From Treponemataceae bacterium (GTDB lineage: Bacteria; Spirochaetota; Spirochaetia; Treponematales; Rectinemataceae): 64,000 nt of DNA. The notes under the pieces were generated by a model, which saw nothing but the letters and a program-made list of their open reading frames with translations, made no database searches and was not told the origin of the DNA. The stretch spans positions 1,728,001 to 1,792,000 of the forward strand of contig CAXXVZ010000003.1 of NCBI GenBank assembly GCA_963678065.2, written 5' to 3'. The translations under genes were made by a program, and so were the position numbers. Shown piece by piece: positions 108 through 16,915 of this stretch. Every line of letters starts with the position of its first letter. Within the stretch, counting starts at the first letter, position 1.

Positions 108-2039
108 ATGTCCAAGAAACGAATCTCGTTCGTGATCGCGCTGGCGCTCGCGGCGGCACTGGTGCTGCCCCTGAGCGTCTTCGCGCTCAACTACTCAGGC
201 AGCCAGGGCAACCTAGCCACCTTCGAAACCCTCGAGGAAACCCACCTCAGCAGCCCGACCGCCGTCGCCAACCTCGAGACCAACGTCGGCAAGCCCTTCA
301 AGTCCCACCCCGTCCTCGACGGCTACCCGCAGGGCACGACCTACGTCTATCGCTCGGCCGAGATGTACGGTGGACGGGCCGCGGCTAGGCTCAACACCGA
401 CATCCTGGTCTTCTCCGACCAATCCTTCGCCGGCAAGGCCCCTGCCCTCAACTACCTCAAGGACCTCGGACTCATCAAGATCATCGACCAGGCTGTCGGC
501 AGCGTCATCCTCGTCACCCCCGCCGATCCCAAGGCTGGCTTCGGACAGGCCGACCAGAAGAACTACTACGCCCTCCAGACCGCCATGCTCGCCCAGAAGG
601 CTTCGGAGACCTCCGGCAAGATAACGACCTACTACTCCGACGCCGAGTACTTAGGCGGCTACGGCTACACCTACGTCATCGGCATCGACGGCGGGGCCAC
701 CTTCCTCAACAACTATGTCGCCGGCACTTTCGACTACGTCAGCAGGATAGCCGGCATGCTCCTGGTAAACGGCAAGATGGACAGCATCCGCGGCGTAGCC
801 TCCCTGGTCCCGGCCTACTTGGTCAACGCCCCGGGCTCGGTCGTGGAGAAGTACAAGAAGGCCAACGGCACCGACGCCTACGCGAGGACTGGCGAGGTCG
901 AGACCTTCTACAACCAGGCCTTCCCCCTCAGGAAGGTCGTCGTCAACGGCGACGCGACCGCCAACCTGGTCTCCATCGTCAGCGACGCCTACTACAACCT
1001 CTTCATCAAGGCCATGCGGGTGCCCGTCATCAAGCAGGGGCTCTACACCGCCGCCACGCCCTACCAGGGCTACAACTTCGACGAGGCTCCCTACTCCCTC
1101 TGCGAGCGCAACGCCGTGATCGACGGGGTGACCGAGGACGGGATCTGCCTGATCCGCCACAAGGAAGACAGGTTCGGCAACATCAAGACGCTTGACGGCG
1201 AATACCTGCAGACCTGGTTCGAGTACCTGCCCAAGGAAGTGCTGAACAATACTGCCCCCAGAGGCAGCGTACCATTCATACTCGCGATGCATGGAGGCGG
1301 GGATGATCCTCGCGTATTCGTCGACGAGATCGGTCTGCTGGCCCTCGCGGGGAAAGAACGTTTTGCGATGGCGGCCCCAGAGCATCAATACCTCGGATTC
1401 ATACGAAAGGACAATAAGCAGATAGAGGGCATTCTTTGCGATGTGCTGCCGCAATTCGTACAGTACATGTTGGCGACCTATCCAGCCCTGGACCCTTCCC
1501 GCGTCTATGTCACCGGCTATTCGATGGGCGGCGGCGCGACCCTGAGAGCCATAAACGGGAATCCATCGCTTTTCGCCGCGGCGGTACCTATGGCGGCTTC
1601 CAGTTACATAGGCACGAAAGAGCAAGTCGCGCAGTTTGCCACCTACGACCTGCCTATCATGTTTACCACTTCTTCCTTCGATCTTGGCGGTGCATTCGAC
1701 CAAGCCAACGTCACTATTGCGACCGGTTACCAGAGCTTGATCAACCTCTTTCTCGAATATAACGGGATCCAGAAGATCAATGCTTTCGACTTTGGTACCT
1801 ATCCTATTTCTGGTTTCAAGGCGGCCACTATAAATCGCGTAACCCTCAACAACGAGTATATAAACACCCGCTGGTACATCAACAATTCAGATGGAATCCC
1901 GATGGTTGCCCTTAGCTACACAGAAAACTTGATCCACGCGCTTTACCCCGAATACGCCAAGATCATGTGGGAATTCTCCAAGCATTACTCAAGAAATCAG
2001 ACAACCGGTTCTGTAGTGTACGATCAATCTGCAAAATAG
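108..2039 (+). CDS. Secreted serine alpha/beta-hydrolase (PHB depolymerase/LpqC-like esterase), array copy 1
   Basis: Signal peptide ending VFA; HGGGDD oxyanion region; GYSMGG nucleophile elbow; LIHALYPEY His motif; SD AAGGAGG. Confidence 0.8.
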   Translation: MSKKRISFVIALALAAALVLPLSVFALNYSGSQGNLATFETLEETHLSSPTAVANLETNVGKPFKSHPVLDGYPQGTTYVYRSAEMYGGRAAARLNTDILVFSDQSFAGKAPALNYLKDLGLIKIIDQAVGSVILVTPADPKAGFGQADQKNYYALQTAMLAQKASETSGKITTYYSDAEYLGGYGYTYVIGIDGGATFLNNYVAGTFDYVSRIAGMLLVNGKMDSIRGVASLVPAYLVNAPGSVVEKYKKANGTDAYARTGEVETFYNQAFPLRKVVVNGDATANLVSIVSDAYYNLFIKAMRVPVIKQGLYTAATPYQGYNFDEAPYSLCERNAVIDGVTEDGICLIRHKEDRFGNIKTLDGEYLQTWFEYLPKEVLNNTAPRGSVPFILAMHGGGDDPRVFVDEIGLLALAGKERFAMAAPEHQYLGFIRKDNKQIEGILCDVLPQFVQYMLATYPALDPSRVYVTGYSMGGGATLRAINGNPSLFAAAVPMAASSYIGTKEQVAQFATYDLPIMFTTSSFDLGGAFDQANVTIATGYQSLINLFLEYNGIQKINAFDFGTYPISGFKAATINRVTLNNEYINTRWYINNSDGIPMVALSYTENLIHALYPEYAKIMWEFSKHYSRNQTTGSVVYDQSAK

Positions 2040-2154
2040 TGGCCTTTTCCATTGCCGAGCTGGCAAGGGATTTTTATTTGGCAATGCGACCTCGCCAGCT
2101 CATACCGCTATTCAGATGTGGACGATGTTTTAATCATGAAGAATGGAGGAAGAT

Positions 2155-4032
2155 ATGAAAAAATTGCTCGGCATGGCGCTGGTTATGTGTATTCTATTCA
2201 GCGCCGGTAATGCCTTCGCGCTCGGCTACAAACAGCATCTCGATAACAAGGCCACCTTCGAGACCTTGAAGGAAGCCCATGATAACGGGCCCGCGTACCT
2301 GAGCCCGGCGACGGGCAGGAACTACGTGCCCGATCCGGCGCTGGATACCTATCCGGACGGAACCACGTACATTTACCGTTCGGCCACTATGTTCACCTGT
2401 CTCAGCGCGGCGAACCGCATGAACACGAACATTCTTGTGTTCACCGACAAGTCCTTCGACGCTAAGGACGCGGCGCTCTCGTACATAAAGAAGCTCGGCT
2501 TGACCGACATCGTGGACAAGGCCTCCGGAAGCGTGGTGCTTGTGACGCCGATCGACAAAAAGACCGGCTACGGCATCGCCGACCAGTACGCTTATTACCA
2601 GATGCAGTCGGCTATGTACAACATTGGCTTCACGAAGAAGATCGACGACAAGACGGTGTACTATGCGGACAGCGCCTACTTCGGCGGCCAGACCTATCGC
2701 TACCTCATTGGGATCGACGGCGGCGCCTCCTTCCTGAACAACTTCGTCGCCAGCACCTTCGATTACGTCTCCCGCGTGGCGGGAATGCTGCTCGTCAACG
2801 GCCAGATGGAGAAGGTCCGCAAGGTCGCCTCCCCCGTCCCTGTTTACCTGGCGGGCACCACGGACGAGATCGTCGGGAAATACAAAGAAGCTAACAACAC
2901 CAACGCGTCGGGATTCGAGCGTGGCTACCAGTACTACTTCAACCAGGCGCACAGCCTGCAGAAGATCATCGTCAACCAGGATGCCAAACTCAGCGCCGAC
3001 TTGGTCAACGATGTGTACAACAACTTCTTCGTCAAAGCCATGCGAGTCCCCGTGCTCAAGGCGGGACTCTTCGCCGCTTCCACCCTCTACAGCAATTATA
3101 ACTGGAACATGGCCCCCTACTCCCTAGGCGAACGCAACGCGATCGTCGACGGCAAGACCACGGACGGGATCAACGTCATCGAGCGCAAGGAGGACCGTTT
3201 CAAGAGCATCGCGACCAAAACGGGTGAGTACATTCAGACCTGGTACGAATTCCTTCCCGACGAAGTTCTTAAGGGAACCGCGGAGAAGGGAAGCGTTCCA
3301 CTCATCCTCATGAACCACGGAGGCGGCGACGACCCCGTTCAGGCCACGGACGACCTCGGGTGGCTCACTCTCGCCGGAAAGAAACACTTCGCCATTGTGG
3401 CGCCTCTCCACACCTCCGCCACGGATATCCTTTCCACCGCCCTTCCTGCGCTCGTCAAATACATGCTGGCGACCTATCCGGCCCTGGATCCTTCCCGCGT
3501 CTACGTTACCGGCTATTCCATGGGCGGGGGAGCGACCAACCGTACTCTCTACGGGGATGCGAGCCTCTTCGCGGCAGCCGTGCCGATGTCCGGCACGCCC
3601 TATACGCACCTTCCTGATCAGACAGCGCAGTTTGCCTCCATCGACATTCCTGTGCTCTTCACTACCTGCACCTATGACACCTACACCCACTTCGACTCGG
3701 TGAATGGTATCATCGCCGACGATTTTCAGATGAACATCAACGACTACCTCAGCTACAACGAGATGCCCACCGTCGTCTATGACTTCAAGACCTATCCCAT
3801 GAGCGGCTTCAAGGGCGACACCTTCAAGTCCATCATGCTCAATGACGAGTATCCCAACTACACCTGGCTGTTCCTCAACAAGGCGGGAGTCCCGATGGTC
3901 GGACTGAGCGTCACCGAATTCCTGCCCCACGGGCTGTATCAAGCCTACGCGGGACTCGCCTGGGACTTCCTGGTCCACTATTCCCGCGACCCGAACACAA
4001 AGGCGATCGTCTACACCGCGTTCGCCAACTGA
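2155..4032 (+). CDS. Secreted esterase-like hydrolase, array copy 2
   Basis: GGAGGA then ATG at 2155; signal peptide ending AFA; NHGGGDD, GYSMGG, LPHGLY. Confidence 0.8.
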   Translation: MKKLLGMALVMCILFSAGNAFALGYKQHLDNKATFETLKEAHDNGPAYLSPATGRNYVPDPALDTYPDGTTYIYRSATMFTCLSAANRMNTNILVFTDKSFDAKDAALSYIKKLGLTDIVDKASGSVVLVTPIDKKTGYGIADQYAYYQMQSAMYNIGFTKKIDDKTVYYADSAYFGGQTYRYLIGIDGGASFLNNFVASTFDYVSRVAGMLLVNGQMEKVRKVASPVPVYLAGTTDEIVGKYKEANNTNASGFERGYQYYFNQAHSLQKIIVNQDAKLSADLVNDVYNNFFVKAMRVPVLKAGLFAASTLYSNYNWNMAPYSLGERNAIVDGKTTDGINVIERKEDRFKSIATKTGEYIQTWYEFLPDEVLKGTAEKGSVPLILMNHGGGDDPVQATDDLGWLTLAGKKHFAIVAPLHTSATDILSTALPALVKYMLATYPALDPSRVYVTGYSMGGGATNRTLYGDASLFAAAVPMSGTPYTHLPDQTAQFASIDIPVLFTTCTYDTYTHFDSVNGIIADDFQMNINDYLSYNEMPTVVYDFKTYPMSGFKGDTFKSIMLNDEYPNYTWLFLNKAGVPMVGLSVTEFLPHGLYQAYAGLAWDFLVHYSRDPNTKAIVYTAFAN

Positions 4033-4074
4033 GAAGAAAGCAAGATGCGTCCGGAAACAACCAAAGGAGCAATT

Positions 4075-5958
4075 ATGAAAAGAATCGTGTGTATCACGCT
4101 GCTGTTTTATCTTTTCCTCGGCGCGAACTCCGCGTTCGCGCTGGGCTACAAGCAGCATCTCGGCAATAACGCCACCTTCGAGACCTTGAAGGAGGCCCAC
4201 GCGAACGGCGCCGCGTACATGAGCTCCGTTACGGACAGGACCTATGTCCCCGATCCCGCGCTGGACGCGTATCCCCAGAACACCACCTTCGTCTATCGCT
4301 CGGCGGGACAATACACCTGCACCAGCGCGGCCTTCCGGATGAACACCAATATCCTCGTATACACGGACAAGGCTTTCGACACCAAGGACAAGGCCTTTCA
4401 GTATTTGAGGGACCTCGGCGTGATCAGCATCATCGACAAGGCAGTGGGCAGCGTTACCCTGGTCACCCCCATCGATCCCAAGGCCGGATTCGGCACCGCG
4501 GACCAGTACGCGTATTTCCAGCTGCAGGCCGCCATGTGCAACCTCGGCTACACGGCGAAGGTTAACGACAAGACCGTCTATTACGCCGACAACTCCTACT
4601 TCGGCGGGCTCACCTATCGCTACCTCATCGGCATTGAGGGCGGCGCGACCTTCTTGAACAACTTCGTGGCGACTACCTTCGACGACGTCACCCGCGTCGC
4701 AGCCATGCTGCTCATCAAGGGCGACATGGAGAAGGTCCGCAAGGTGGCATCCTTCGTTCCCACCTACCTCGTGAACGCCTCCGCCGATGTCGTGGAGAAG
4801 TACAAGGCCGCAAACCAGACGAACGCCTGGGGCTACGACCAGAACGGCAACATGTTCTATTTCAACCAGGCACAGCCACTTCAGAAAGTCATCATGGACA
4901 GGACCTCGAAGGTCGACTCGAGCCTGATCGGCACTGTGTACAACAACTTCATGACCAAATATTTCCGCATCCCGGTCGTGAAGGCGAACCTGTACTCAGC
5001 CTCCACTCTCTACAGCGACTACAAGTGGAACCAGGCCCCGTATTCCCTTGGGGAACGCAATGCCATCGTCGACGGAAAGACCGCGGACGGGATCTACGTC
5101 GACGAGCACCATGAGGATCGGTTCAAGAACATCAAGCAGGACAACGGCGAATACCTGGATACCTGGTTCGAGTTCCTGCCCGAGGAGGTCAAGAACAACA
5201 CAGCCCCCAAGGGGAGCGTTCCCCTGTTCCTGGGAAACCACGGCGGCGGGGACGACCCCGTGCAGTACGCGGACAACATCGGCCTCTTGACGCTCGCCGG
5301 CAAGGAGAGGTTCGCCCTTGTCGTTCCCGAGCAGCAGTCCATCTCCAGCATCAGGGGCAAGGCGCTGCCAACTCTCGTGAAATACATGCTCGCGACCTAT
5401 CCCGCGCTCGACGCGTCCCGCGTATATACCACCGGCTACTCTATGGGCGGCGGCGCAACATTCAACGCCGTGGACGGCGATGCCCGGCTCTTCGCTGCCG
5501 CGGTTCCACAGGCTGCGGTCACCTACGTCGCGACCAAGGAAGAATCGGCGCAGTTCAAGGACCTGGACATCCCCATCATGCTCACCACCTCTACGTATGA
5601 CTATTTCTACGATACGGCCACCTTGGTCTACAGGGTGACCGCCATGTGCGATTATCCCACCATGCTCAACCTGTACCTCGGATTCAACGAGATGCCTGCC
5701 CTGAATTTCGATTGCGTCAAGTATCCGCTCAGCGGATTCAAGGCGGACGAGTTCAAGGAAATTACCCTTAACAACGAGTACGTGAATCGCACCTGGCTGC
5801 TCTACAAGGAAGGGATTCCCATGGTCGGCCTGAACGTCACGGATTTCCTACCGCACGGCCTGTACCAGGAATACGCGAAGGTGGTGTGGGACTTCGTAAA
5901 GCACTATTCCCGCGACCTGAAGACCGGCGCGGTCGTCTACCGTCCCTATGTCGACTGA
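4075..5958 (+). CDS. Secreted esterase-like hydrolase, array copy 3
   Basis: AAGGAG then ATG at 4075; same motifs as copy 2. Confidence 0.8.
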   Translation: MKRIVCITLLFYLFLGANSAFALGYKQHLGNNATFETLKEAHANGAAYMSSVTDRTYVPDPALDAYPQNTTFVYRSAGQYTCTSAAFRMNTNILVYTDKAFDTKDKAFQYLRDLGVISIIDKAVGSVTLVTPIDPKAGFGTADQYAYFQLQAAMCNLGYTAKVNDKTVYYADNSYFGGLTYRYLIGIEGGATFLNNFVATTFDDVTRVAAMLLIKGDMEKVRKVASFVPTYLVNASADVVEKYKAANQTNAWGYDQNGNMFYFNQAQPLQKVIMDRTSKVDSSLIGTVYNNFMTKYFRIPVVKANLYSASTLYSDYKWNQAPYSLGERNAIVDGKTADGIYVDEHHEDRFKNIKQDNGEYLDTWFEFLPEEVKNNTAPKGSVPLFLGNHGGGDDPVQYADNIGLLTLAGKERFALVVPEQQSISSIRGKALPTLVKYMLATYPALDASRVYTTGYSMGGGATFNAVDGDARLFAAAVPQAAVTYVATKEESAQFKDLDIPIMLTTSTYDYFYDTATLVYRVTAMCDYPTMLNLYLGFNEMPALNFDCVKYPLSGFKADEFKEITLNNEYVNRTWLLYKEGIPMVGLNVTDFLPHGLYQEYAKVVWDFVKHYSRDLKTGAVVYRPYVD

Positions 5959-5991
5959 AGTTTAGCGTAAAGCTGTTCGGGCTACGCAGCT

Positions 5992-6194
5992 CGAGCGTTT
6001 CTGTCGCCTGCCGGCATGAGGCTCTTGGCCTCTCGTCCGGCAGGAGTCTTTCCTGGCGGACTATTGTGATGCGAAAGACAGCGAGCGGCATTTGTGTCGG
6101 AGGGAACCGGCGGAACGGGGAGCAGGCCCGATTTCCCGAACGTTTCCCTCCCCTCCCGAATGAACGACTCGCGTCGATTATAAGGAGAAGGATT
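5992..6194 (+). repeat. ~200 bp structured intergenic repeat, copy A (leader of copy 4)
   Basis: Closely matches 8125-8318; several hairpins; ends at the SD. Confidence 0.85.
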
Positions 6195-8105
6195 ATGAAG
6201 AAACTGATCTGTGCGGCGCTATCGATCTGCCTTCTGTTGAGCGCAAGCGCGGCCTTCGCGCTCGACTACAAGCAGCATTTCGACAACAATGCCACGTTCG
6301 AGACCTTGAAGGAGGCGCGCGCCAACGGGGCAGCGTACTTGAGTTCGGCTACGGACAGGATCTATGTGCCCGACCCGGCCCTCGACAGCTACCCGGACGG
6401 GACCACCTATGTCTATCGTTCCGCCAGGATATACACCTCCCTGAGCGCGGCGAACCGCATGAACACCAACATCCTCGTGTACACGGACAAGTCCTTCGAC
6501 GGCAAGGACGCGGCGCTCGCTTATCTCAAGAAGCTGGGCCTGACGGAGGTCGCGGATAAAGCCTATGGGAGCTTGACCCTGGTGACCCCCGCCGACAAGA
6601 AGCTCGGCTTCGGCGTCGCCGACCAGTATGCCTACTTCCAGCTGCATTCGGCAATGTGCAACATCGGATACACCAAAAAGGTCGACGCCAAAACCACCTG
6701 GTATTACGCCGACAGCGCGTATTATGGCGGGCTGACCTACCGCTATCTCATCGGCATCGATGGCGGGGCCACCTTCCTGAACAACTACGTAGCCAGCACC
6801 TTCGACTATATTTCCCGCATAGCTGGTATGCTGCTAATCAACGGCGACATGGACCGCATCCGCCAAGTGGCCGCCTTCGTCCCCACCTATCTGGTGAATG
6901 CCTCCGCCGAGGTGGTCGACAAGTACAAGGCAGCGAACAAGACGGACGCCTTCTCGGTCAAGGGCGATGTGAGCTGCTACTACAACCAGGCCCAGCCCTT
7001 GCAGAAAGTATACGTCGCCAAGCAGGACCAGGTGGACCTCGCCGCCGCGGTCAAGGCTGCATACTACGATATGTTCATCAAAGCCTTGCGGAACGCATCG
7101 GTAAAGGCCGGTCTTTACACGGCTTCCACACTTTATAGCGACTACAAATGGAATATGGCCCCCTACTCCCTGTCCGAGCGAAACGCGATAATCGACGGCG
7201 TCACCGCCGACAGGCTTTCCGTGATCGAGCACAAGGAAGACCGATTCAGTAAAATGGCCACCGACGCCGGAAACTATGTCCAAACCTGGTTCGAGGTCCT
7301 TCCCGAAGAGGTCAAGAACAACACCGCTCCCGCCGGATCGGTTCCGCTCATCCTGGCCAACCACGGCGCCGGCGACGATCCCGTGCAGTTCCTGGATGAA
7401 ATGGACTGGCTGTCAATTGCCGGCAAGAAACGCCTGGCGATTGTGGCACCCTACCATACGGTGGATTTCGGCGTGAACGGCTATAACATCCTCTGCGATG
7501 TGCTGCCCGAGTTGGTCAAGTATATGCTGGCGACCTATCCTGCCCTGGATGCCTCCCGCGTCTACGTGACCGGCTACTCCATGGGTGGCGGCGCGACTAA
7601 CCGCGCCATTTGCAGCGCACCCCAGCTTTTCGCCGCCGCAGTCCCCGAGGCTGCCCTCGCCTACACCGCAACCGCCAAGCAAGCTCTCCAGTTCGAAAAA
7701 TACGATATTCCCGTCCTGCTCACCACTTCGACCTACGACTCTTTCGTGGTGAACGACAAGTCCATCAACAACACGTCCCAGAATGTCCTCTTCGATTATC
7801 AGGGCATGATAAACCAATATCTTGCGTTCAACGGTATGAAGACCATCGCGTTCGACTTCAACACGTACCGCTACTTCGGCGCCAAGGCCGATATCTACAT
7901 CCAGAACACCTTGAACAATGAGTATACAAACCGCATGTGGCTGATGCTCAACGACAAAGGCGTTCCCATGGTGGGGCTGAGCGTAACCGACTTCCTTCCG
8001 CACGGTCTGTACCAGGAGTATGGCAAGATCGCGTGGGATTTCATGAAGCACTATTCTCGCGATCAGAAGACCGGCGCGGTCATCTACGATGCATATGCCG
8101 ACTGA
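6195..8105 (+). CDS. Secreted esterase-like hydrolase, array copy 4
   Basis: TAAGGAG then ATG at 6195 (MKKLICAA); NHGAGDD, GYSMGG, LPHGLY. Confidence 0.8.
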   Translation: MKKLICAALSICLLLSASAAFALDYKQHFDNNATFETLKEARANGAAYLSSATDRIYVPDPALDSYPDGTTYVYRSARIYTSLSAANRMNTNILVYTDKSFDGKDAALAYLKKLGLTEVADKAYGSLTLVTPADKKLGFGVADQYAYFQLHSAMCNIGYTKKVDAKTTWYYADSAYYGGLTYRYLIGIDGGATFLNNYVASTFDYISRIAGMLLINGDMDRIRQVAAFVPTYLVNASAEVVDKYKAANKTDAFSVKGDVSCYYNQAQPLQKVYVAKQDQVDLAAAVKAAYYDMFIKALRNASVKAGLYTASTLYSDYKWNMAPYSLSERNAIIDGVTADRLSVIEHKEDRFSKMATDAGNYVQTWFEVLPEEVKNNTAPAGSVPLILANHGAGDDPVQFLDEMDWLSIAGKKRLAIVAPYHTVDFGVNGYNILCDVLPELVKYMLATYPALDASRVYVTGYSMGGGATNRAICSAPQLFAAAVPEAALAYTATAKQALQFEKYDIPVLLTTSTYDSFVVNDKSINNTSQNVLFDYQGMINQYLAFNGMKTIAFDFNTYRYFGAKADIYIQNTLNNEYTNRMWLMLNDKGVPMVGLSVTDFLPHGLYQEYGKIAWDFMKHYSRDQKTGAVIYDAYAD

Positions 8106-8124
8106 GGGTGCTCACTGAGCATTC

Positions 8125-8318
8125 CGAGCGTTTCTGTTGCCTGCCGGCATGAGGCTCTTGGCCTCTCCTCCGGCAGGAGTCTTTCCTGATGGACTGTTGT
8201 GCCGTGAATGACCCTGAGGGTCATTCGCGGCGGAGGGAATCGTCGCAACGGGGAGTGGACCCGACTTCCCGAACGCTTCCCTCCCCCCGAATGAACGGCT
8301 CGTGTCAATGATAAGGAG
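8125..8318 (+). repeat. Structured intergenic repeat, copy B (original leader of copy 5, separated from it by the IS110)
   Basis: Matches 5992-6187; similarity to copy A resumes at 10977. Confidence 0.85.
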
Positions 8319-8518
8319 GAATGATAAAACGTCAACCGGGTTCTAGGTGAAGAGGGTATCCTGTAGCGGAGGGATCCGATACGGGAAGGCTATTGCTCGT
8401 CATGGTTTATGGCTTACGAGGCCGGTAAGGAGAATGAGGAGTAAAGTGCGCCTAATCGTCAATACAGAAAAAAAGAAAAATAAGGTGGATCCCAATTTGT
8501 CCTTGTATTCATGAATTT

Positions 8519-9385
8519 CTATGCTGCCAGCCGTAGGCTGAAGCATCGGTTATACACCTCATCCGGTGTAGCATACTCAAGGGACTGATGAAATCGTTCC
8601 TGGTTGAAGAAATTGAAGTATTTGTCGACGGCGGTCTTTAGTTCCACGAGCGATTCGTACGAGTTCAGGTAAATTTCTTCGTACTTCAGTGACCTCCAGG
8701 TCCGCTCGATATAGATGTTGTCCAAAGCCCGGTTGACGCCATCCATGCTGATCTGGATTCCTTTGGCTTCAAGAACCGAGACAAACGCCTCGGATGTGAA
8801 CTGGCTCCCTTGGTCGGTGTTGAAGATCCCGGGAGTCCCGTGTACGGTAAGGGCTTCTTCCAGAGCATCGATGCAGAATCCTACATCCATCGTATTCGAG
8901 ATTCGCCACGACAGAACTTTCCGTGAAAACAGGTCGATAATCGCCACGAGATAGACATGAGACCCATTCACCTTCAGGTAGGTCACATCCGTTGCCCAGA
9001 CATGGTTCGCTATCCATATTTTCTTGTCTCGCAATAAATACGGGTACTTCTTGTGGTGTTTCGACGGTTTCGATAGATTCTTGCCGGGAAAGAGAGCCTT
9101 GAGTCCTGCCCGCTTCATGATCCGCCTGACCTGCTTGCGGGTGACCTTCATATCCTTCAAGGCACAGGCCATCCGCCGGTATCCATAGAACGGATGCTTG
9201 TTCAATTCTTCGAGAATTGCCGTGAGTACGGCCATCCCCCACTCGTCATCCATCTTTACTGATGTGTAGTAATACGCCGATCTGCTGATTCCCAACAGTT
9301 CACATTGCGTGATGATCGGCAGATCCTGATTGTCGGGTTCTACAAGTTCGGCTCGCTCCCGTACACCTGTCGGTACTTTTTTTTT
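8519..9385 (-). CDS. IS3 OrfB DDE transposase/integrase core, reached by -1 frameshift
   Basis: WATDVTY, NTDQGSQFTS, DNIYIERTWRSLKYE motifs; A9G slippery run at 9385-9376; -1 frame is open from there. Confidence 0.9.
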   Translation of the reverse strand, partial: KKKVPTGVRERAELVEPDNQDLPIITQCELLGISRSAYYYTSVKMDDEWGMAVLTAILEELNKHPFYGYRRMACALKDMKVTRKQVRRIMKRAGLKALFPGKNLSKPSKHHKKYPYLLRDKKIWIANHVWATDVTYLKVNGSHVYLVAIIDLFSRKVLSWRISNTMDVGFCIDALEEALTVHGTPGIFNTDQGSQFTSEAFVSVLEAKGIQISMDGVNRALDNIYIERTWRSLKYEEIYLNSYESLVELKTAVDKYFNFFNQERFHQSLEYATPDEVYNRCFSLRLAA

Positions 9386-9642
9386 AGAAACGCATTCTCG
9401 ACCTGGAGTTGCCCAATCTGCTTGAAGAGCTCGTCCTGCTTCTCTTGGGCTACTTCTGCTTCCTTGTCCTTCCCTGATCTTTCAAAGAGCGTGGCTACTT
9501 GATCGACCACATGCTTTTTCCATTGGGCAATCTGATTCGGATGCACTCCATAGATTTGGGACAGTTCCTGAAGGGTTTTCTCGTTCCGGACTGCTTCCAT
9601 GGCCACTTTGGCCTTGAAGCTGGTGTCGTAGCTTTTGCGCAT
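9340..9642 (-). CDS. IS3 OrfA (HTH)
   Basis: MRKSYDTSFKAKVA...YGVHPNQIAQWKK...ENAFLKKK; SD GGAGG. Confidence 0.9.
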   Translation of the reverse strand: MRKSYDTSFKAKVAMEAVRNEKTLQELSQIYGVHPNQIAQWKKHVVDQVATLFERSGKDKEAEVAQEKQDELFKQIGQLQVENAFLKKKYRQVYGSEPNL

Positions 9643-9826
9643 GGTGTACTCTATGCCTCCCGTATCTTTTTTTACAAGGAGGAATGTCACCTTATTTCCC
9701 TTTGTTTCCTGTCTGATTTCTTGGGCTCATTATAGAGCCTAGCCGCATCATTCAATGACCCGCGAGGTCGAATAGGAGAATGGGCCCGATCCACCGCATC
9801 GAACCTATATCGGATGGGGAGAGGAT

Positions 9827-10915
9827 ATGAGCATCAGTGTTGGCGTTGATCTTCACAAGACGCAGTTCACGATGTTCGCCCGCGTGGGCGAAGGTTTTTT
9901 CGGGAAGTACCTGACGACAGAGGACGGATATGAAGCGTTCTTGGCGCGAATCAGGGTGTGGCGAAAGGAAGGGCAGTCGGTGCGGGTGGGCGTCGAGTCG
10001 ACCGGCAATACGAGGTACTTCAAAAACAGGATGGAGCGAGAGGGCATCGAAGTGAGAGTGATCAACACGCTCAAGTTCAAAGTCGTCAACGAATCGGTGA
10101 AGAAGACCGATCGTCACGACGCCGCGACCATCGCGGAGTTTCTCGAGAAAGACATGCTTCCTGAGTCTCATCTCTGCTCCGAGGCGAGTGAGCAGCTACG
10201 ACGACTCTTGAAGGTTCGTACGACATTGGTTCGGACTATCGTGACGGTGAAGAACCAGATTCACGGGCTATTAATCGGGCTGGGGATGCAGGATTCCAAA
10301 GCCAGTCTGCAAAGCAAGCGAGGGCGCCAGAAGATTCTGGACACCCTCGCAGGAGCGGACAACGGACTCGTGGTCCAACCGCTGTTCGAAACGATAGATC
10401 GGCTCGAAGAGAACGTCAAGATTGTGGAACGCGAGCTCGAGGCTCTGACGGGAAAAGATCGAGCGGTCGAACTTCTCCAGACGATTCCCGGCTGCGGCAA
10501 AGTGACGGCATGGACGATCCGCGCCTTCACGGACGACATCGGGCGTTTCGAATCATTTAGGAACTATTCCGCCTTCGCGGGCCTCGTTCCATGGGTCCAA
10601 TGCTCGAACACCACCGAGCACTACGGCCGGATCACGAAGCGTGGCCCCGAGGAACTCCGGACGGCATTGGTCCAGCTGGTGCTCGGGATGCGAAGAAGCA
10701 AGCAGACGTTATCCTGGCGACTGATGGAACGCTACGCGAGAATGAGACACGAGAAAGGGACGGGAAGAACGATCATCGCGACCGCCCGAAGGATTTCCAG
10801 GATCATCTGGTGCATGTTGACTGCTGACGAGCCTTTCGATCCTAGTCTCATGATCGATAAACGACTGAGCAAAAAGGCGGATTCCATGCGGGCCGCCCTG
10901 AGGATAACCGCATGA
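9827..10915 (+). CDS. IS110 DEDD recombinase/transposase
   Basis: GVDLHK, VESTG and KTDRHDA (DEDD); AGLVP..CS and ITKRG in the C-terminal domain; ORF intact. Confidence 0.95.
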   Translation: MSISVGVDLHKTQFTMFARVGEGFFGKYLTTEDGYEAFLARIRVWRKEGQSVRVGVESTGNTRYFKNRMEREGIEVRVINTLKFKVVNESVKKTDRHDAATIAEFLEKDMLPESHLCSEASEQLRRLLKVRTTLVRTIVTVKNQIHGLLIGLGMQDSKASLQSKRGRQKILDTLAGADNGLVVQPLFETIDRLEENVKIVERELEALTGKDRAVELLQTIPGCGKVTAWTIRAFTDDIGRFESFRNYSAFAGLVPWVQCSNTTEHYGRITKRGPEELRTALVQLVLGMRRSKQTLSWRLMERYARMRHEKGTGRTIIATARRISRIIWCMLTADEPFDPSLMIDKRLSKKADSMRAALRITA

Positions 10916-10983
10916 TGCCGGCGTAGCCGGGCAATTTCGGATTCGTGTCGACCACCCGGTTGACATTTTATAGGAGAAGGATC

Positions 10984-12876
10984 ATGAAGAAACTATTCTG
11001 TGCTGCGCTATCGATCTGCCTTCTGTTGAGCGCAAGCGCAGCCTTCGCGCTCGACTACAAGCAGCATTTCGACAACAATGCCACGTTCGAGACCCTGAAA
11101 GAGGCCCACACCAACGGAGCCTTGTACCTGAGTTCGGCTACCGGCAGGACCTATGTGCCCGATCCGGCGCTGGACAGCTACCCGGATGAAACCACCTATG
11201 TCTATCGTTCCGCCAGGATGTATACCTGCCTGAGCGCCGCCAACCGCATGAACACCACCATCCTGCTGTACTCGGACAAATCCTTCAACGGCAAGGAAGC
11301 GGCCCTGTCCTACATAAAGAGCCTGGGACTGACCGACATCATCGACAAGGCCTATGGCAGCGTGGTGCTGGTAACCCCTATCGACAAGAAAGGCGGCTTC
11401 GGCGCCGCCGACCAGTATGCCTACTACCAGCTGCAGTCCGCCATGGCCAACATCGACTTCTCAAAGAAGGTAGATGACAAGACCACCGTGTATTATGCGG
11501 ATGGCCCGTATTTCGGGGGCCAGACGTACCGCTACCTCATCGGCGTCGACGGCGGGGCTACCTTCCTGAACAACTATGTAGCCAGCACCTTCGACTACGT
11601 CAGCAGGATAGCGGGCATGCTCCTCGTCAACGGCAAGATGGAAAAGGTTCGGAAGGTCGCCTCGAGCGTTCCCGTGTACCTGGTGAACGCTTCCGATGAA
11701 ATCGTCGAGAAGTATAAGGAAGCCAACGGCACGAATGCCTCAGGCTACGAGCGTGGATTCCGCTACTACTTCAACCAGGCAAAGAGCCTGGAGAAGGTCG
11801 TCGTCAACCAGGACGCCAAGCTCGGCGCCGACTTGGTCAGCGACGTGTACAACACTTTCTTCATCAAGGCCATGCGCATTCCCGTGCTCAAGGCCGGCCT
11901 CAACGCCGCTTCCACCGTATACAACAATTACAGCTACAATCAGGCTCCCTACTCCCTGTGTGAGCGGAACGCCATCATCGACGGCAGGACGAAGGACGGG
12001 ATCAACGTCATCGAGCACAAAGAGGACAGCTTCAAGAGCATCGCCACCAAGACAGGCGAGTACATCCAGACCTGGTTCGAGATCCTGCCCGACGAGGTGC
12101 TGAACAACACCGCGCAGGCGGGCACCGTTCCCCTTTGGCTTTCCTGCCACGGCGGCGGCGACGACCCCGTGCAGTTCACGGACGAGATCGGTCTTCTCAA
12201 ACTGGCCGGCGAGGAGCGCTTCGCCATGGTCGCGCCCTCCTATCAGAACGTCTATTCCGACAGCGTAGTCTGCGGAAAAGCCATGTGTGCCACAGTGGAG
12301 ATGATGCTCAAGAAATACCCGGCCCTGGATGCCTCGCGCGTCTACGTGACCGGCTACTCCATGGGCGGCGGGACTACGGTGACTTCCTTCATGAATGATG
12401 TCAGGATGTTCGCCGCCGCCATACCGATGGCTGCCGGCTCACTGAAAGGCACCGACGATCAGATCGCCAGTTTGAACAAATACGGCCTGGCCTTCATGCA
12501 GCTCACCTCTTTTTATGACCCGGTGGCCTTCAATGCCGCGACCGGCACCCCAAAAGAGATGGTTGAAATCAACATGAACGCCTATCTGAGGTTCAACAAG
12601 ATCAACAGGACCATCGATAAGTTCGATTACGCGACTTATCCTGTCAGCGGCTATAAGGCGGATCGCTATATCGAAAGCACGTTGAACGGCGAATATACCA
12701 ACAAGCGCTGGTTTTTCATGAACGAGGAGGGAGCCCCCCTGGTTGGCTTCTGCTTTACCGACGATCTCATCCATGCCCTGTATCCGGAGTATGGATATAT
12801 GGCCTGGGATTTCGCCAAGCACTTCTCCCGCGACAAGGCTACGGGGAAGATTCTCTATACCCCTTTTGTCAAGTAA
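10984..12876 (+). CDS. Secreted esterase-like hydrolase, array copy 5
   Basis: ATG at 10984 after AGGAG; CHGGGDD, GYSMGG, LIHALYPEY. Confidence 0.8.
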   Translation: MKKLFCAALSICLLLSASAAFALDYKQHFDNNATFETLKEAHTNGALYLSSATGRTYVPDPALDSYPDETTYVYRSARMYTCLSAANRMNTTILLYSDKSFNGKEAALSYIKSLGLTDIIDKAYGSVVLVTPIDKKGGFGAADQYAYYQLQSAMANIDFSKKVDDKTTVYYADGPYFGGQTYRYLIGVDGGATFLNNYVASTFDYVSRIAGMLLVNGKMEKVRKVASSVPVYLVNASDEIVEKYKEANGTNASGYERGFRYYFNQAKSLEKVVVNQDAKLGADLVSDVYNTFFIKAMRIPVLKAGLNAASTVYNNYSYNQAPYSLCERNAIIDGRTKDGINVIEHKEDSFKSIATKTGEYIQTWFEILPDEVLNNTAQAGTVPLWLSCHGGGDDPVQFTDEIGLLKLAGEERFAMVAPSYQNVYSDSVVCGKAMCATVEMMLKKYPALDASRVYVTGYSMGGGTTVTSFMNDVRMFAAAIPMAAGSLKGTDDQIASLNKYGLAFMQLTSFYDPVAFNAATGTPKEMVEINMNAYLRFNKINRTIDKFDYATYPVSGYKADRYIESTLNGEYTNKRWFFMNEEGAPLVGFCFTDDLIHALYPEYGYMAWDFAKHFSRDKATGKILYTPFVK

Positions 12877-12939
12877 TTCCTGAGTGGAGCGCCCCTTGGG
12901 GGGCGGCGATATTGTCGACATAATAGGAGGGCTTAGCCC

Positions 12940-14871
12940 ATGTCCAAGAAACGAATCTCGTTCGTAATCACGCTGGCGCTCGCGGCGGCACTGGTGCTGC
13001 CCCTGAGCGTCTTCGCGCTCAACTACTCAGGCAGCCAGGGAAACACCGCCACCTTTGAGACCCTCGAGGAAACCCGCCTCAGCAGCCCCAAAGCCGTCGC
13101 CAACCTCGAGACCAACGTCGGCAAGGCCTTCAAGTCCCACCCCGTCCTCGACGCCTACCCCAAGGGCACGACCTATGTCTATCGTTCGCCCAATCTCAAC
13201 GGGGGAAGAGCCGCCGCCAGGCTCAACACCGACATCCTGGTCTTTGCCGAGAAAGCCTTCGCCGACAAGGGCGCCGCCCTCAAGTACATCGATGACCTTG
13301 GCCTGATCGACATCATCAACCAGGCCATCGGCAGCGTCATCCTCGTCACCCCGGCCGATCTCAAGGCAGGCTTCGGACAGGCCGACCAGAAGAACTACTA
13401 CGCCCTCCAGACCGCCATGCTCGCCCAGAAGGCTTCGGAGAGAGCTGGCACGGTCACGACCTACTACTCCGACGCCGAGTACTTCGGCGGTTTCGGCTAC
13501 ACCTACGTGATCGGCATCGACGGCGGAGCCACCTTCCTGAACAACTACGTCGCCGGCACCTTCGACTACGTCAGCAGGATAGCCGGCATGCTCCTGGTCA
13601 ACGGCAAGATGGACAGCATCCGCGCCGTCGCCTCCCTGGTCCCGACCTACCTGGTCAACGCCCCTGACTCGGTCGTGGAGAAGTACAAGAAGGCCAACGG
13701 CACCGACGCCTACGCCAGGACTGGCGAGGTCGAGACCTTCTACAACCAGGCGCTTCCGCTCAAGAAGGTCGTGGTCGCAAGCGATGCGTATCCCGACCTG
13801 GGGAAGTACATCAAGGACGCCTACTACAACCTCTTCATCAAGGCCATGCGCGTCCCCGTCGTCAAGGGTGGCTTGTACACTGCATCGACTCCATACCAGG
13901 GCTATGGTCTTGATCAAGCACCCTATTCCCTCTGCGACAGGAACGCTGTGATAAATGGAGCAACTGAAGACGGGATCCAATTCCTTCGCCGCACTGATGA
14001 GCGCTTCGGCGACGTCAAGACAATCGATGGCGAATACTTGCAGACTTGGTTCGAGTATCTCCCCAAAGAGGTATTGAATAATACTGCTCCTAAAGGAAGC
14101 GTCCCGCTCATACTCGCGATGCATGGCAGCGGGGACGATCCTCGCGGATTTGTCGACGAAGCTGGCTTGCTCGAAATTGCGGGCAAGGAACGTCTCGCTG
14201 TTGTGGCTCCAGAGCATCAATATATTTTCTGGACACAGCAGGGGAACAAGTATCTGGAAGGCATAGAATTAACCGTTATCCCTCGTTTGGTGCGATACGT
14301 ACTCAAGACCTACCCCGCCTTGGATCCCTCCCGCGTCTATGTAACAGGCTATTCCATGGGAGGGTATGCAACGTTCAAGGCAGTCCACGGTGACGCATCA
14401 CTATTCGCCGCAGCGGTGGCCATGGCCGGTATGGGCTATACACCAACTGAGGAACAAGCAGCACAATTCGATAAGATCGATATGCCCATCATGATGACTA
14501 CTTCAACAAACGATCTAGGCGTCGTATTCGATCAATCTGTATGGGGCATCGGTTCAAGTTATCAAGGCCAACTTCCGCTCTTCCTCGGATATAACGGCAT
14601 GAAAAAAATAGAAAAATTCGATTTCGCTTCCTATCCAGTTTCTGGATTCAAGGCTGACAAGGTCGTGAGCCTGCGGCTCAACGGAGAATACGGGAATACC
14701 ACGTGGTATCTCAACAACGACAAGGGCGTGCCTATGGTGGCCCTTACCGTGACCGAGAACCTCGTCCACGCCCTCTACCCCGAATACGCCAAGCTCATGT
14801 GGGAATTCGCCAAGCACTATTCCCGCAACCAAGGCACCGGGGCAATTGAGTACGCTCCCTTCGTCCGGTAG
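12940..14871 (+). CDS. Secreted esterase-like hydrolase, array copy 6
   Basis: MSKKRISF type; MHGSGDD, GYSMGG, LVHALYPEY. Confidence 0.8.
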   Translation: MSKKRISFVITLALAAALVLPLSVFALNYSGSQGNTATFETLEETRLSSPKAVANLETNVGKAFKSHPVLDAYPKGTTYVYRSPNLNGGRAAARLNTDILVFAEKAFADKGAALKYIDDLGLIDIINQAIGSVILVTPADLKAGFGQADQKNYYALQTAMLAQKASERAGTVTTYYSDAEYFGGFGYTYVIGIDGGATFLNNYVAGTFDYVSRIAGMLLVNGKMDSIRAVASLVPTYLVNAPDSVVEKYKKANGTDAYARTGEVETFYNQALPLKKVVVASDAYPDLGKYIKDAYYNLFIKAMRVPVVKGGLYTASTPYQGYGLDQAPYSLCDRNAVINGATEDGIQFLRRTDERFGDVKTIDGEYLQTWFEYLPKEVLNNTAPKGSVPLILAMHGSGDDPRGFVDEAGLLEIAGKERLAVVAPEHQYIFWTQQGNKYLEGIELTVIPRLVRYVLKTYPALDPSRVYVTGYSMGGYATFKAVHGDASLFAAAVAMAGMGYTPTEEQAAQFDKIDMPIMMTTSTNDLGVVFDQSVWGIGSSYQGQLPLFLGYNGMKKIEKFDFASYPVSGFKADKVVSLRLNGEYGNTTWYLNNDKGVPMVALTVTENLVHALYPEYAKLMWEFAKHYSRNQGTGAIEYAPFVR

Positions 14872-15013
14872 GCGAGAAGTCTTCAGCAATGGCGAAGTCG
14901 CGGAAGGCGAAATCTGCGCCAGCCTTCCGCGACCCGGTTTGGGGCGCAGGTAGAACAGGCGATATTGATGGCGACATCAATACGTATACGGATACCCAAT
15001 GGAGGGAAGAAAC

Positions 15014-16915
15014 ATGTCCAAGAAGCGAATCTCGTTCGTGATCGCTCTGGCGCTGGCGGCGGCACTTTTGCTGCCCGTGAGCGTCTTCGCGCTCAACTAT
15101 TCAGGGAGCCAAGGGAACGCCGCCACCTTCGAAACCCTCGAGGAAACCCGCCTCAGCAGCCCGGCTGCCGTCGCCAACCTCGAGACCAACGTCGGAAAGC
15201 CCTTCAAGTCCCACCCCGTCCTCGACGGCTACCCCAAGGGCACAACCTACGTCTATCGCTCGGCAGAGATGTACGGCGGACGGGCCGCGGCCAGGCTCAA
15301 CACCAACATCCTGGTATTCTCCGACCAATCCTTTGCCGGCAAGGCCCCTGCCCTCAACTACCTCAAGGACCTCGGACTCATCAAGATCATCGACCAGGCG
15401 ATCGGCAGTGTCATCCTCGTCACCCCCGCCGATCCCATGGCGGGCTTCGGCCAGGCCGACCAGAAGAACTACTACGCCCTCCAGACAGCCATGCTCGCCC
15501 AGAAGGCCTCCGAAACCTCCGGCAAGATAACGACCTACTACTCCGACGCCGAGTACTTAGGCGGCTACGGCTACACCTACGTCATCGGCATCAACGGCGG
15601 AGCTACCTTCCTGAACAACTACGTGGCCGGCACCTTCGACTACGTCAGCAGGATAGCGGGCATGCTCCTGGTCAACGGCAAGATGGACAGCATCCGCAAC
15701 GTCGCTTCCCTGGTCCCGGCCTACCTGGTCAACGCCCCGGACTCGGTCGTTGAGAAGTACAGGAAGGCCAACGGCACCGACGCCTACGCCAGGGAAGGCG
15801 GGGTCGAGACCTACTCCAACCAGGCCTTCCCCCTCAGGAAGGTCGTCGTCAACAACGACGTGACCGCAAACTTGGCCTCCATCGTCAGCGACGCCTACTA
15901 CAACCTGTTCATCAAGGCCATGCGCGTCCCTGTCGTGCTGCAGGGGCTCTATACCGCCGCCACCCCCTACCAGGGCTACAACTTCGACGAGGCGCCCTAT
16001 TCCCTCTGCGAGCGCAACGCGCTGATCAGCGGCGAGACAAAGAACGGGATTAGCTTGATCGCGCATAATGGCGAAAAACGCTTCGCGAGCATGAAATCCC
16101 AGAGTGGCGAATACCTCGATACTTGGTACGAATATCTCCCCAAGGAAGTGCTTAACAACACCGCCCCGAAGGGAAGCATCCCCCTCATCCTCGGCAACCA
16201 TGGCGGCGGAGACGATCCCCGCCTGTACATCGACGAAATGGGAATCCTGGCCCTTGCGGGAAATGAACGCCTCGCTGTTGTCGCAGCCGACCACAACAGC
16301 CTCAGCAACGATGTCAGGGGCCCCGCCCTGGCAGCGCTCGTCAAATACATGCTGGCGACCTATCCGTCGCTGGATCCTTCACGTGTCTACGCCATAGGCT
16401 ACTCCATGGGTGGCGGGGCGACGTACACGGTGTCGTATTACCAGCCCAGCCTATTCGCGGCCGTGGCCCCTGTGGCGGGCACGAATATCGAGCCCACCCA
16501 AGAAGAAGTCGCCAAGTTCGCGAGCTGCCAACTCCCGATTTATCTTTCAACCTCTTCGTACGACGTACGCCGTCTCCAGGAAGCCTGTGGAAGGATCAAC
16601 GACAACCTCGCCAACCAGGTAAAGCGCTGGTCTGGTTTTAACGGCATCGCGCCATTCGCGTTCGATTTTGTCACCTATCCGCTCTCAGGCTTCAAAGGGG
16701 ATTCCTTCACCATTCGGACATTGAATGGCGAATACGCGTCCTATACCTGGTATCTGAACAATGCTAATGGGGTCCCTATGGTAGCGCTCAACTACGTCCA
16801 GGATCTTATCCACGCGCTGTATCCCGAGTACGCAAATATCGCCTGGGAATACATGAAGCATTTTTCCAGGAACCAGCAGACTGGCGGAATCCAGTTTAAC
16901 CCGCACATAAAATAA
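15014..16915 (+). CDS. Secreted esterase-like hydrolase, array copy 7
   Basis: MSKKRISF start at 15014; NHGGGDD, GYSMGG, LIHALYPEY. Confidence 0.8.
   Translation: MSKKRISFVIALALAAALLLPVSVFALNYSGSQGNAATFETLEETRLSSPAAVANLETNVGKPFKSHPVLDGYPKGTTYVYRSAEMYGGRAAARLNTNILVFSDQSFAGKAPALNYLKDLGLIKIIDQAIGSVILVTPADPMAGFGQADQKNYYALQTAMLAQKASETSGKITTYYSDAEYLGGYGYTYVIGINGGATFLNNYVAGTFDYVSRIAGMLLVNGKMDSIRNVASLVPAYLVNAPDSVVEKYRKANGTDAYAREGGVETYSNQAFPLRKVVVNNDVTANLASIVSDAYYNLFIKAMRVPVVLQGLYTAATPYQGYNFDEAPYSLCERNALISGETKNGISLIAHNGEKRFASMKSQSGEYLDTWYEYLPKEVLNNTAPKGSIPLILGNHGGGDDPRLYIDEMGILALAGNERLAVVAADHNSLSNDVRGPALAALVKYMLATYPSLDPSRVYAIGYSMGGGATYTVSYYQPSLFAAVAPVAGTNIEPTQEEVAKFASCQLPIYLSTSSYDVRRLQEACGRINDNLANQVKRWSGFNGIAPFAFDFVTYPLSGFKGDSFTIRTLNGEYASYTWYLNNANGVPMVALNYVQDLIHALYPEYANIAWEYMKHFSRNQQTGGIQFNPHIK

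Follow-up and report, generated by a model that had tools for sequence, protein, structure and literature searches.

The insertion element at 8319-10976 of the window, by which we mean the whole stretch of 64,000 nucleotides (nt) from Treponemataceae bacterium contig CAXXVZ010000003.1, carries a predicted bridge RNA that would read translation-start signals. With considerable confidence, based on the sequences of the element and its relatives, we read it as an IS1111-type element with a predicted two-loop bridge RNA whose target guides match the host Shine-Dalgarno (SD) sequence NNAGGAG and the start codon. It likely inserts after AGGAG, and its own right end ATAGGAG restores the motif at the same distance from ATG. 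An initial annotation of the window had proposed such a bridge RNA from the sequence alone; this proposal held in a covariation test among relatives, and all motifs quoted in the annotation are found at the positions given there.

The window copy and its intact twin both lie directly before a gene. The annotated right end of the element is correct, whereas the annotated left end at 8314 counts AGGAG twice and the true start is 8319. Once an inserted IS3-family element is removed, the IS110-family element proper is 1,362 base pairs (bp) long, with non-coding stretches of 212 nt upstream and 61 nt downstream of its recombinase. An IS3-free copy of 1,362 bp on contig C5 of the same genome is 100% identical to it, so the join made in silico by the annotation, including the 212-nt left end, occurs naturally. 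The joined flanks of the window copy read ATAAGGAG to the left and AAGGATCATG to the right of the joint, and the empty paralogous site at 6179-6197 reads ATAAGGAG and AAGGATTATG. Removing the element in silico recreates a paralog-like unoccupied site as had been claimed, with a one-base difference in the right half. There is no target duplication beyond the short shared core, as nothing is added when the flanks rejoin. The annotation had located the crossover in the AGGAG of the SD sequence; we place it at the final AG, the only bases common to target and donor in the retargeted relatives L121 and L138. AGGAG is complementary to the 16S tail of the same genome. The window copy lies 7 nt before the ATG of an intact paralog of 630 amino acids (aa). 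For the C5 copy, the gene that starts 7 nt further on is serC (NCBIfam TIGR01364 above cut-off), and there the TAA of TAAGGAG is the stop codon of an upstream phosphoglycerate-dehydrogenase-like gene. By sequence, the right end regenerates AGGAG at unchanged spacing from ATG, in agreement with the annotation. A scan of the genome for element ends returned two remnants of relatives, both of which end in AGGAG with an ATG 6 or 7 nt further on. At a third site, on a contig of run X9, there is an IS3-free copy with 19 differences (~99% identical) whose right flank has ATG at spacer 6, the spacer being counted from AGGAG to ATG.

Genomes contributed 79 loci of relatives, and metagenomes the best 80 of 270. 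The parsed set (n=144) consists of 140 loci at ≥45% identity and four entries from the own genome; two loci gave no usable match, and 17 loci at 29-36% identity are handled as a separate distant group. Within the parsed set, the target loop could be parsed in 121 and the donor loop in 128 elements. The element was found in 2 of 68 other genomes in a family-wide search and in 9 of 400 in a phylum-wide search. The fold of both modules is supported by compensatory changes across 58 sequences, which affect 14 of the 25 pairs and all four helices framing the loops. Paired cells amount to 93.1%, compared to 85.3% in shuffled and 25-42% in slid controls, where the derivation of the fold from these same 58 sequences favours the fold in the slid control. 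The single-sequence fold is no better than shuffles (z -1.27), and an Rfam scan of 8000-11200 gave one chance-level match and no bridge-RNA family.

All four guides covary with the DNA that they are predicted to read among the 144 elements. For the left target guide, covariation with the left flank reaches z 7.8-11.2 at positions -7 to -3 (89 pairs). The match is 7/7 in 63 and at least 6/7 in 84 of these pairs, and no signal extends beyond 7 nt. A 9-nt left guide as in IS621 is ruled out because -8 shows no signal and the guide base at -9 is invariant. In the element described here, this guide is identical to the host flank 8312-8318, as annotated. The left donor guide equals the right end of the element in 118 of 119 cases, including ten in which both have changed to ATAGAAG, and the right donor guide covaries with the left end at two positions (z 7.2 and 4.0, 41 pairs). 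The 14/14 match of the second module to the circle junction can be reproduced, with informative variation at only five of the seven reverse-complement positions. A handshake-type pairing of the bases beside the inner hairpins with the left or right target gave no consistent signal; cells with z 4-6 for guide nt 7 versus left-target bases likely reflect the repeat nature of retargeted sites.

We grouped 117 distinct right junctions by guide only. Elements with a right target guide starting in CAT have ATG at spacer 5-7 in 63 of 77 junctions, and the 70 with ATG in the range of 4 to 9 nt distribute as 1, 13, 42, 8, 2 and 4. For non-CAT guides the corresponding number is 1 of 23 (Fisher p 1e-11 versus CAT guides, the sites not being independent), and for junctions without a parsed loop 9 of 17. 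These collected insertions bear out the proposal that the element homes to translation starts. A downstream frame of ≥80 aa is opened in 50 of the 55 junctions with enough flank, and in the junctions examined, recombinase and host gene point in the same direction. As background in the own genome, ATG follows at 5-7 nt after 7.8% of all 16,164 AGGAG sites and after 42 of 221 TAAGGAG sites. All 15 copies of one complete genome lie at AGGAG-N5-7-ATG, as do 19 of 20 right ends in two other complete genomes, although insertion sites within one genome are not independent; in one of these two, the guide and most targets have changed together to ATGGGAG. The spacer peaks are element-specific, with spacer 6 in 12 of 15 sites compared to a host supply of 36% (p 0.0006), and spacer 5 in 5 of 6 compared to a host supply of 22% (p 0.003). 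The distant group, from Lentisphaerota, a Bacillota bin and an alphaproteobacterial plasmid, also inserts after AGGAG and before ATG with looser spacing. Here ATG is found at 5-8 nt in 13 of 17 by script, and in 14 with L075 read by hand.

The register of the right target guide becomes visible when sites are anchored on ATG. Guide nt 4-7 then covary position by position with the four bases preceding ATG (diagonal mean z 3.1, off-diagonal 1.1, n=63), and this diagonal persists with one site for each of 27 guide types. For the retargeted junctions (n=23), the best of +2 and +3 yields 4.65 of 7 Watson-Crick matches versus 2.76 after shuffling, and +1 yields 1.65 versus 2.07. Right guides begin at +1 in the donor and at +2 to +4 in the target, and the bases opposite the AG core are not complementary to the core. 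Because the right-guide register starts after +1, the predicted encoded target of the element is TAAGGAG-N(1-3)-AACCATG. It is not contiguous; the target guides do not overlap, and the register slips. The annotated target of about TAAGGAG-AACCATG was correct in combining an SD sequence with a start codon, but not in joining them directly, as a 4-nt spacer is found in 1 of 77 sites and the modal spacer of 6 in 42. Both own-genome sites have spacer 7 and fit at +4. The right half AAGGATC, which had been called a partial match, is one at +1 (4/7), whereas five Watson-Crick and two G-U pairs of seven are formed in the corrected register. For the serC site, the corrected register gives a 6/7 match to the right target guide and +1 only 1/7.

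Natural retargeting acts as a control on these assignments. Each parsed guide switch is matched by its flanks, and in 19 of 21 retargeted elements the left guide matches the new site 7/7. The retargeted sub-branch L121-L159 (21-26 elements) inserts between short tandem repeats (CACGGAG-like). Ten of its members have also changed donor end and donor guide to ATAGAAG, losing the SD motif once it was not needed. In a quick maximum-likelihood tree of 95 proteins, start-site guides are found on all deep branches, and all retargeted elements but one outlier fall within one sub-branch. The start-site elements L008, L141 and L140 fall among the retargeted ones, and well-supported branches force at least two to three switches of guide type. 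Start-site targeting is likely ancestral; we keep to this wording because the root is the midpoint and the long reference branches are unreliable. Reference transposases join this tree, which is without any IS110-group reference, on very long branches.

Several points weigh against our reading and have to be considered together with the alternatives. ATG is missing at 5-7 nt in 14 of the 77 CAT-guide sites, and the pairing of the right guide is loose, with spacer bases matching it at ~50% where 32-40% are expected. In the distant group, the guide mostly starts with AAT, spacers range from 5 to 10, and ATG at 5-7 is found in only 8 of 17 by script and 9 with L075; selection may do more of the work there. 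Loose matches and broad spacers of this kind would be expected if only the left guide mattered, with any AGGAG being hit and the ATG bias arising from loss of insertions inside genes. Predicted coding DNA contains about 80-87% of the (A)AGGAG sites of the own genome, which means that gene starts would become enriched through purging, and half-match insertion is described for IS621 in the accessible part of a recent report (10.64898/2026.08.31.748434). We nevertheless consider this explanation unlikely. Outside predicted coding DNA, just 22-31% of (A)AGGAG sites have ATG at 5-7 compared to 82% observed, a background taken from one genome with a crude open reading frame mask. The position-wise covariation of the spacer bases with the guide, the match of rewritten right guides to new right flanks and the element-specific spacer peaks all speak for a contribution of the right guide. 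In addition, the frames opened by the ATG at spacer 6 in L206 and L193 are only 3 and 11 codons long, respectively.

A different difficulty is posed by the genome with 15 copies, where nine left flanks equal the donor half ATAGGAG, located after T runs like the right inverted repeat, and only four equal the left target guide. Donor-like or T-rich flanks may therefore matter for site choice. Taken to its limit, this would mean that sites are picked largely as donor mimics by the donor loop or the protein and that the target loop adds little; reactions with the donor loop only are described for IS621 in what is accessible of the same report (10.64898/2026.08.31.748434). This is very improbable, since the left flank tracks the target guide and not the near-invariant donor guide over the 89 pairs, and since retargeted elements match their new left guide. 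Hardly credible is a contiguous geometry, in which both loops read from the crossover and the target is TAAGGAG-AACCATG. The donor loop does read from +1 and the window site retains four of seven matches in that register, but spacer 4 is nearly absent, the serC site is lost and the retargeted group falls below shuffles at +1. For our own assignment, the window and C5 sites are each equalled in score by only 2 of 217 empty TAAGGAG sites, with the empty paralog slightly lower, in a scoring whose register set of +2 to +4 was fixed with the data already known. Mis-joining at repeats may affect metagenome contigs: L080/L081, L101/L102, L110/L111 and L145/L146 share the left flank and differ in the right flank. 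In the assembled contigs of eight public runs, which cannot show absence, there is neither a circle junction nor an exact empty allele, and one joint in run X5 examined as circle junction does not map to the element ends. RNA-library contigs span the RNA region in one run without proving transcription.

We propose the following mechanism for the guide-directed insertion. Excision would join the element's ends and thereby assemble a TTGACA-17 bp-TAAAAC promoter driving RNA and recombinase, as in IS621 and ISEc11. The donor loop would pair with ATAGGAG/GAATG across the junction. The target loop would pair with the 7 bp left of the crossover and with 7 nt of the top strand starting 1-3 nt, mostly 2, to the right of it, an offset with which natural SD-ATG spacers of 5-7 nt would be compatible. 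After exchange at the AG core, the element would form an extra cistron in the same orientation as the host gene. The host TAAGGAG would then stand before the element and its own ATAGGAG before the host spacer, and therefore both the SD sequence and its spacing would be preserved. RNA expression, the circle, the strand chemistry and the continued expression of the downstream gene are what we infer. Copy-out routes and half-match events are reported for other members in the available parts of two publications (10.1101/2025.10.25.684509; 10.64898/2026.08.31.748434) and may, by analogy, apply here too.

The recombinase places the element in the broad IS110 family by its DEDD RuvC-like domain and its Tnp domain with catalytic serine; the residues D8/E57/D95/D98/S260 are kept in 94-95 of 95 aligned proteins. 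The subterminal inverted repeats are 18 bp long (17/18) and 10 bp apart across the predicted circle junction. In relatives, at least 10 of the first 12 bp are complementary in 74 of 114 elements. The joined ends would form the predicted promoter with an extended TG, and similar boxes are found in most of the 114 elements. An outward hybrid promoter for the downstream gene was set aside by reasoning, as its -35 box would place the -10 box over the start codon. A hairpin followed by a T run at 9873-9900 of the window, early in the recombinase frame on the sense strand, could limit read-through; as a terminator candidate it does not exceed shuffled expectation.

The element resembles the IS1111-family seekRNA elements ISEc11, ISKpn4 and ISPa11 as presented in the accessible text of Siddiquee 2024 (PMC11187229). 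Shared are the subterminal inverted repeats 10 bp apart at the junction, where 7+3 fits a crossover before the final AG, a junction promoter, here predicted, and natural reprogramming. In both loops, the top-strand complement lies 5' of the bottom-strand match as in the IS1111 group, and repeats of at least 11-13 bp with 7+3 terminal extensions correspond to the 17/18 bp found here. In contrast to this group, the RNA region lies upstream of the recombinase and not in a long non-coding region downstream, an arrangement for which the same text notes ISMtsp17 as a rare exception (PMC11187229). In ISEc11 the target matches overlap according to that text (PMC11187229), whereas here they are non-overlapping with 1-3 unread bases between them. 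A translation-start signal as target also distinguishes the element from the seekRNA elements. The recombinase is only 25-32% identical to IS4321 and ISShdy1. We therefore class the element by sequence as IS1111-type and not as a proven IS1111 member: two marks of the group are present, and the third, the downstream RNA region, is absent.

With IS621, as far as described in the available parts of Durrant 2024 (PMC11208160) and PMC13626964, the element shares a DEDD and serine recombinase, a left-end RNA with a 5' hairpin followed by target and donor loop, a 2-nt core and a junction promoter, RNA and promoter being predicted here. Different from the IS621 described there are the reversed guide order within each loop, the location of the donor guides in a multiloop and the long inverted repeats. 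Whereas all four pairings include the core in IS621 according to the same source (PMC11208160), neither right guide pairs with the AG core here. A phmmer comparison to IS621 gives an E of only 1e-9, and the short or missing inverted repeats and the bottom-strand guide in first place that mark the IS621-type IS110 group are not found.

The habit of inserting between SD sequence and start codon is itself already known from IS900 and IS901. Doran 1997 and Inglis 2003 are said to have described it. The accessible literature gives this position for both IS110-family elements of Mycobacterium avium (PMC2942039), which the present element resembles in family and site. IS900 is described, in the part available of a further report, to borrow the host signal for the hed frame on the strand opposite to the transposase (PMC8141618). 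Unlike IS900 as described there, the present recombinase has the orientation of the host gene, to which the right end gives an SD sequence back. A guide-RNA account of targeting SD sequence and start codon, including that of IS900, was not found in the literature searched, which included 10.64898/2026.10.21.760802, most subscription papers and preprint supplements being outside its reach. New are the readable RNA logic, the natural reprogramming as built-in control and the slack, non-overlapping target register.

Beyond the single element, we lean slightly towards the view that a bridge-recombinase lineage across Spirochaetota, Thermodesulfobacteriota, Lentisphaerota and others uses the translation-start signal as a landing pad. 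Its split site would have an elastic, unread gap of 1-3 nt tuned to SD-ATG spacers, and its donor end would itself be an SD sequence, so that every insertion would add a cistron and leave translation of the following gene unbroken. By rewriting both guides, one sub-branch would have moved away to repeat targets, and would then have come back in part. This would provide a guide-level explanation for a target choice known only as a pattern since IS900. Such harmless landing likely lets the element spread without silencing the target gene in any SD-using host, and thus fits its patchy spread over phyla. The non-overlapping, slipping target register would widen the known mechanism of bridge recombinases. 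As a tool, the system would place cargo before a start codon while restoring the ribosome-binding site, with natural guide variants as design rules.

Table 1. Features of the element and its surroundings in window coordinates.
Feature	Position	Strand	Basis
Unoccupied paralogous translation-start site, one mismatch before ATG	6179..6197	+	sequence comparison
Left target half, host SD sequence TAAGGAG; crossover in final AG	8312..8318	+	identical to left target guide 8426-8432; complementary to 16S tail
IS110-family element	8319..10976	+	100% identical IS3-free copy on contig C5
Right donor half (first bases of left end), read by right donor guide	8319..8323	+	covariation z 7.2 at +2, 4.0 at +4; 41 distinct guide/end pairs
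Left subterminal inverted repeat, holds predicted -10 box 8325-8330	8324..8341	+	17/18 complementary to 10954-10971; conserved in 114 elements
5' part of predicted bridge RNA: closing helix arm, hairpin, target-binding loop	8346..8441	+	consensus fold and pair counts, 58 sequences
Right target guide, starts CAT; nt 1-7 complementary to start codon and four preceding bases	8401..8409	+	covariation, junction statistics
Inner hairpin of target loop, invariant U-G closing pair	8410..8424	+	100% of cells paired; 3/5 pairs with compensatory change
Left target guide TAAGGAG, 7 nt	8426..8432	+	covariation and matches to left flank (89 pairs)
IS3-family element in closing stem of target loop; orfA 9340-9690, orfB 8519-9295; GAG duplication 8439-8441 and 9735-9737	8442..9734	-	Pfam, NF033516, copies elsewhere
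3' part of predicted bridge RNA: donor-binding module in multiloop	9738..9795	+	consensus fold and pair counts
Right donor guide	9747..9753	+	covariation supports 9749-9753
Left donor guide ATAGGAG	9772..9778	+	equals right end in 118/119 elements
IS110-family recombinase, 362 aa, D8/E57/D95/D98 and S260	9827..10915	+	PF01548 and PF02371; NF033542 200 bits, cut-off 140
Right subterminal inverted repeat with predicted -35 box TTGACA 10960-10965	10954..10971	+	complementarity to left repeat
Left donor half, right end of element; replacement SD sequence AGGAG at 10972-10976	10970..10976	+	sequence
Right target half: 7-nt spacer and ATG (10984) of downstream gene	10977..10986	+	sequence
Downstream host gene, intact 630-aa alpha/beta-hydrolase-like paralog of tandem array	10984..12876	+	sequence and domain searches

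The IS3-family element within the window copy is assigned by Pfam rve/HTH_Tnp_1 and NCBIfam NF033516 and flanked by a 3-bp duplication. Two other identical copies elsewhere in the genome, also with 3-bp duplications, confirm its ends. The IS3 splits the predicted RNA and puts 1.3 kb between target loop and donor loop. The window copy is therefore likely defective in cis and likely depends on the intact C5 copy.

Remnants and rearranged relatives were also observed. On the minus strand at C2:648249, the left end of a relative breaks off directly behind its left target guide; a 7-nt spacer comes next, and then a 166-aa frame opens with ATG. The right guide fits this flank 7/7, and the remnant looks like a deletion between the AGGAG of the guide and that of the right end. 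At C5:1159442-1160400, also on the minus strand, a 5'-truncated relative (~60-66% identity) lies just downstream of a tRNA-like sequence, as read by eye, and ends before a short antitoxin-like frame. The right end of L087 continues into the sequence found behind the left target guide in the RNA gene of a copy, through self-targeting or deletion. L162 has its target and donor modules fused by a deletion between the parallel hairpins. A tiny palindromic remnant of the left end is present at L035:1175-1330, just upstream of the copy in that locus. In L029-L043, a T-rich repeat resembling the right end of the element is shared among the left flanks of several copies, which are located at its end.

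The gene downstream of the window copy is copy 5 of a tandem array of at least 11 paralogous, signal-peptide-bearing alpha/beta-hydrolase-like genes of ~630 aa, which covers 108-16915 of the window and flanking contig (C3:1722001-1746894). The paralogs are 50-64% identical to copy 5. In run X9, a different gene order follows the intergenic region of copy 4.

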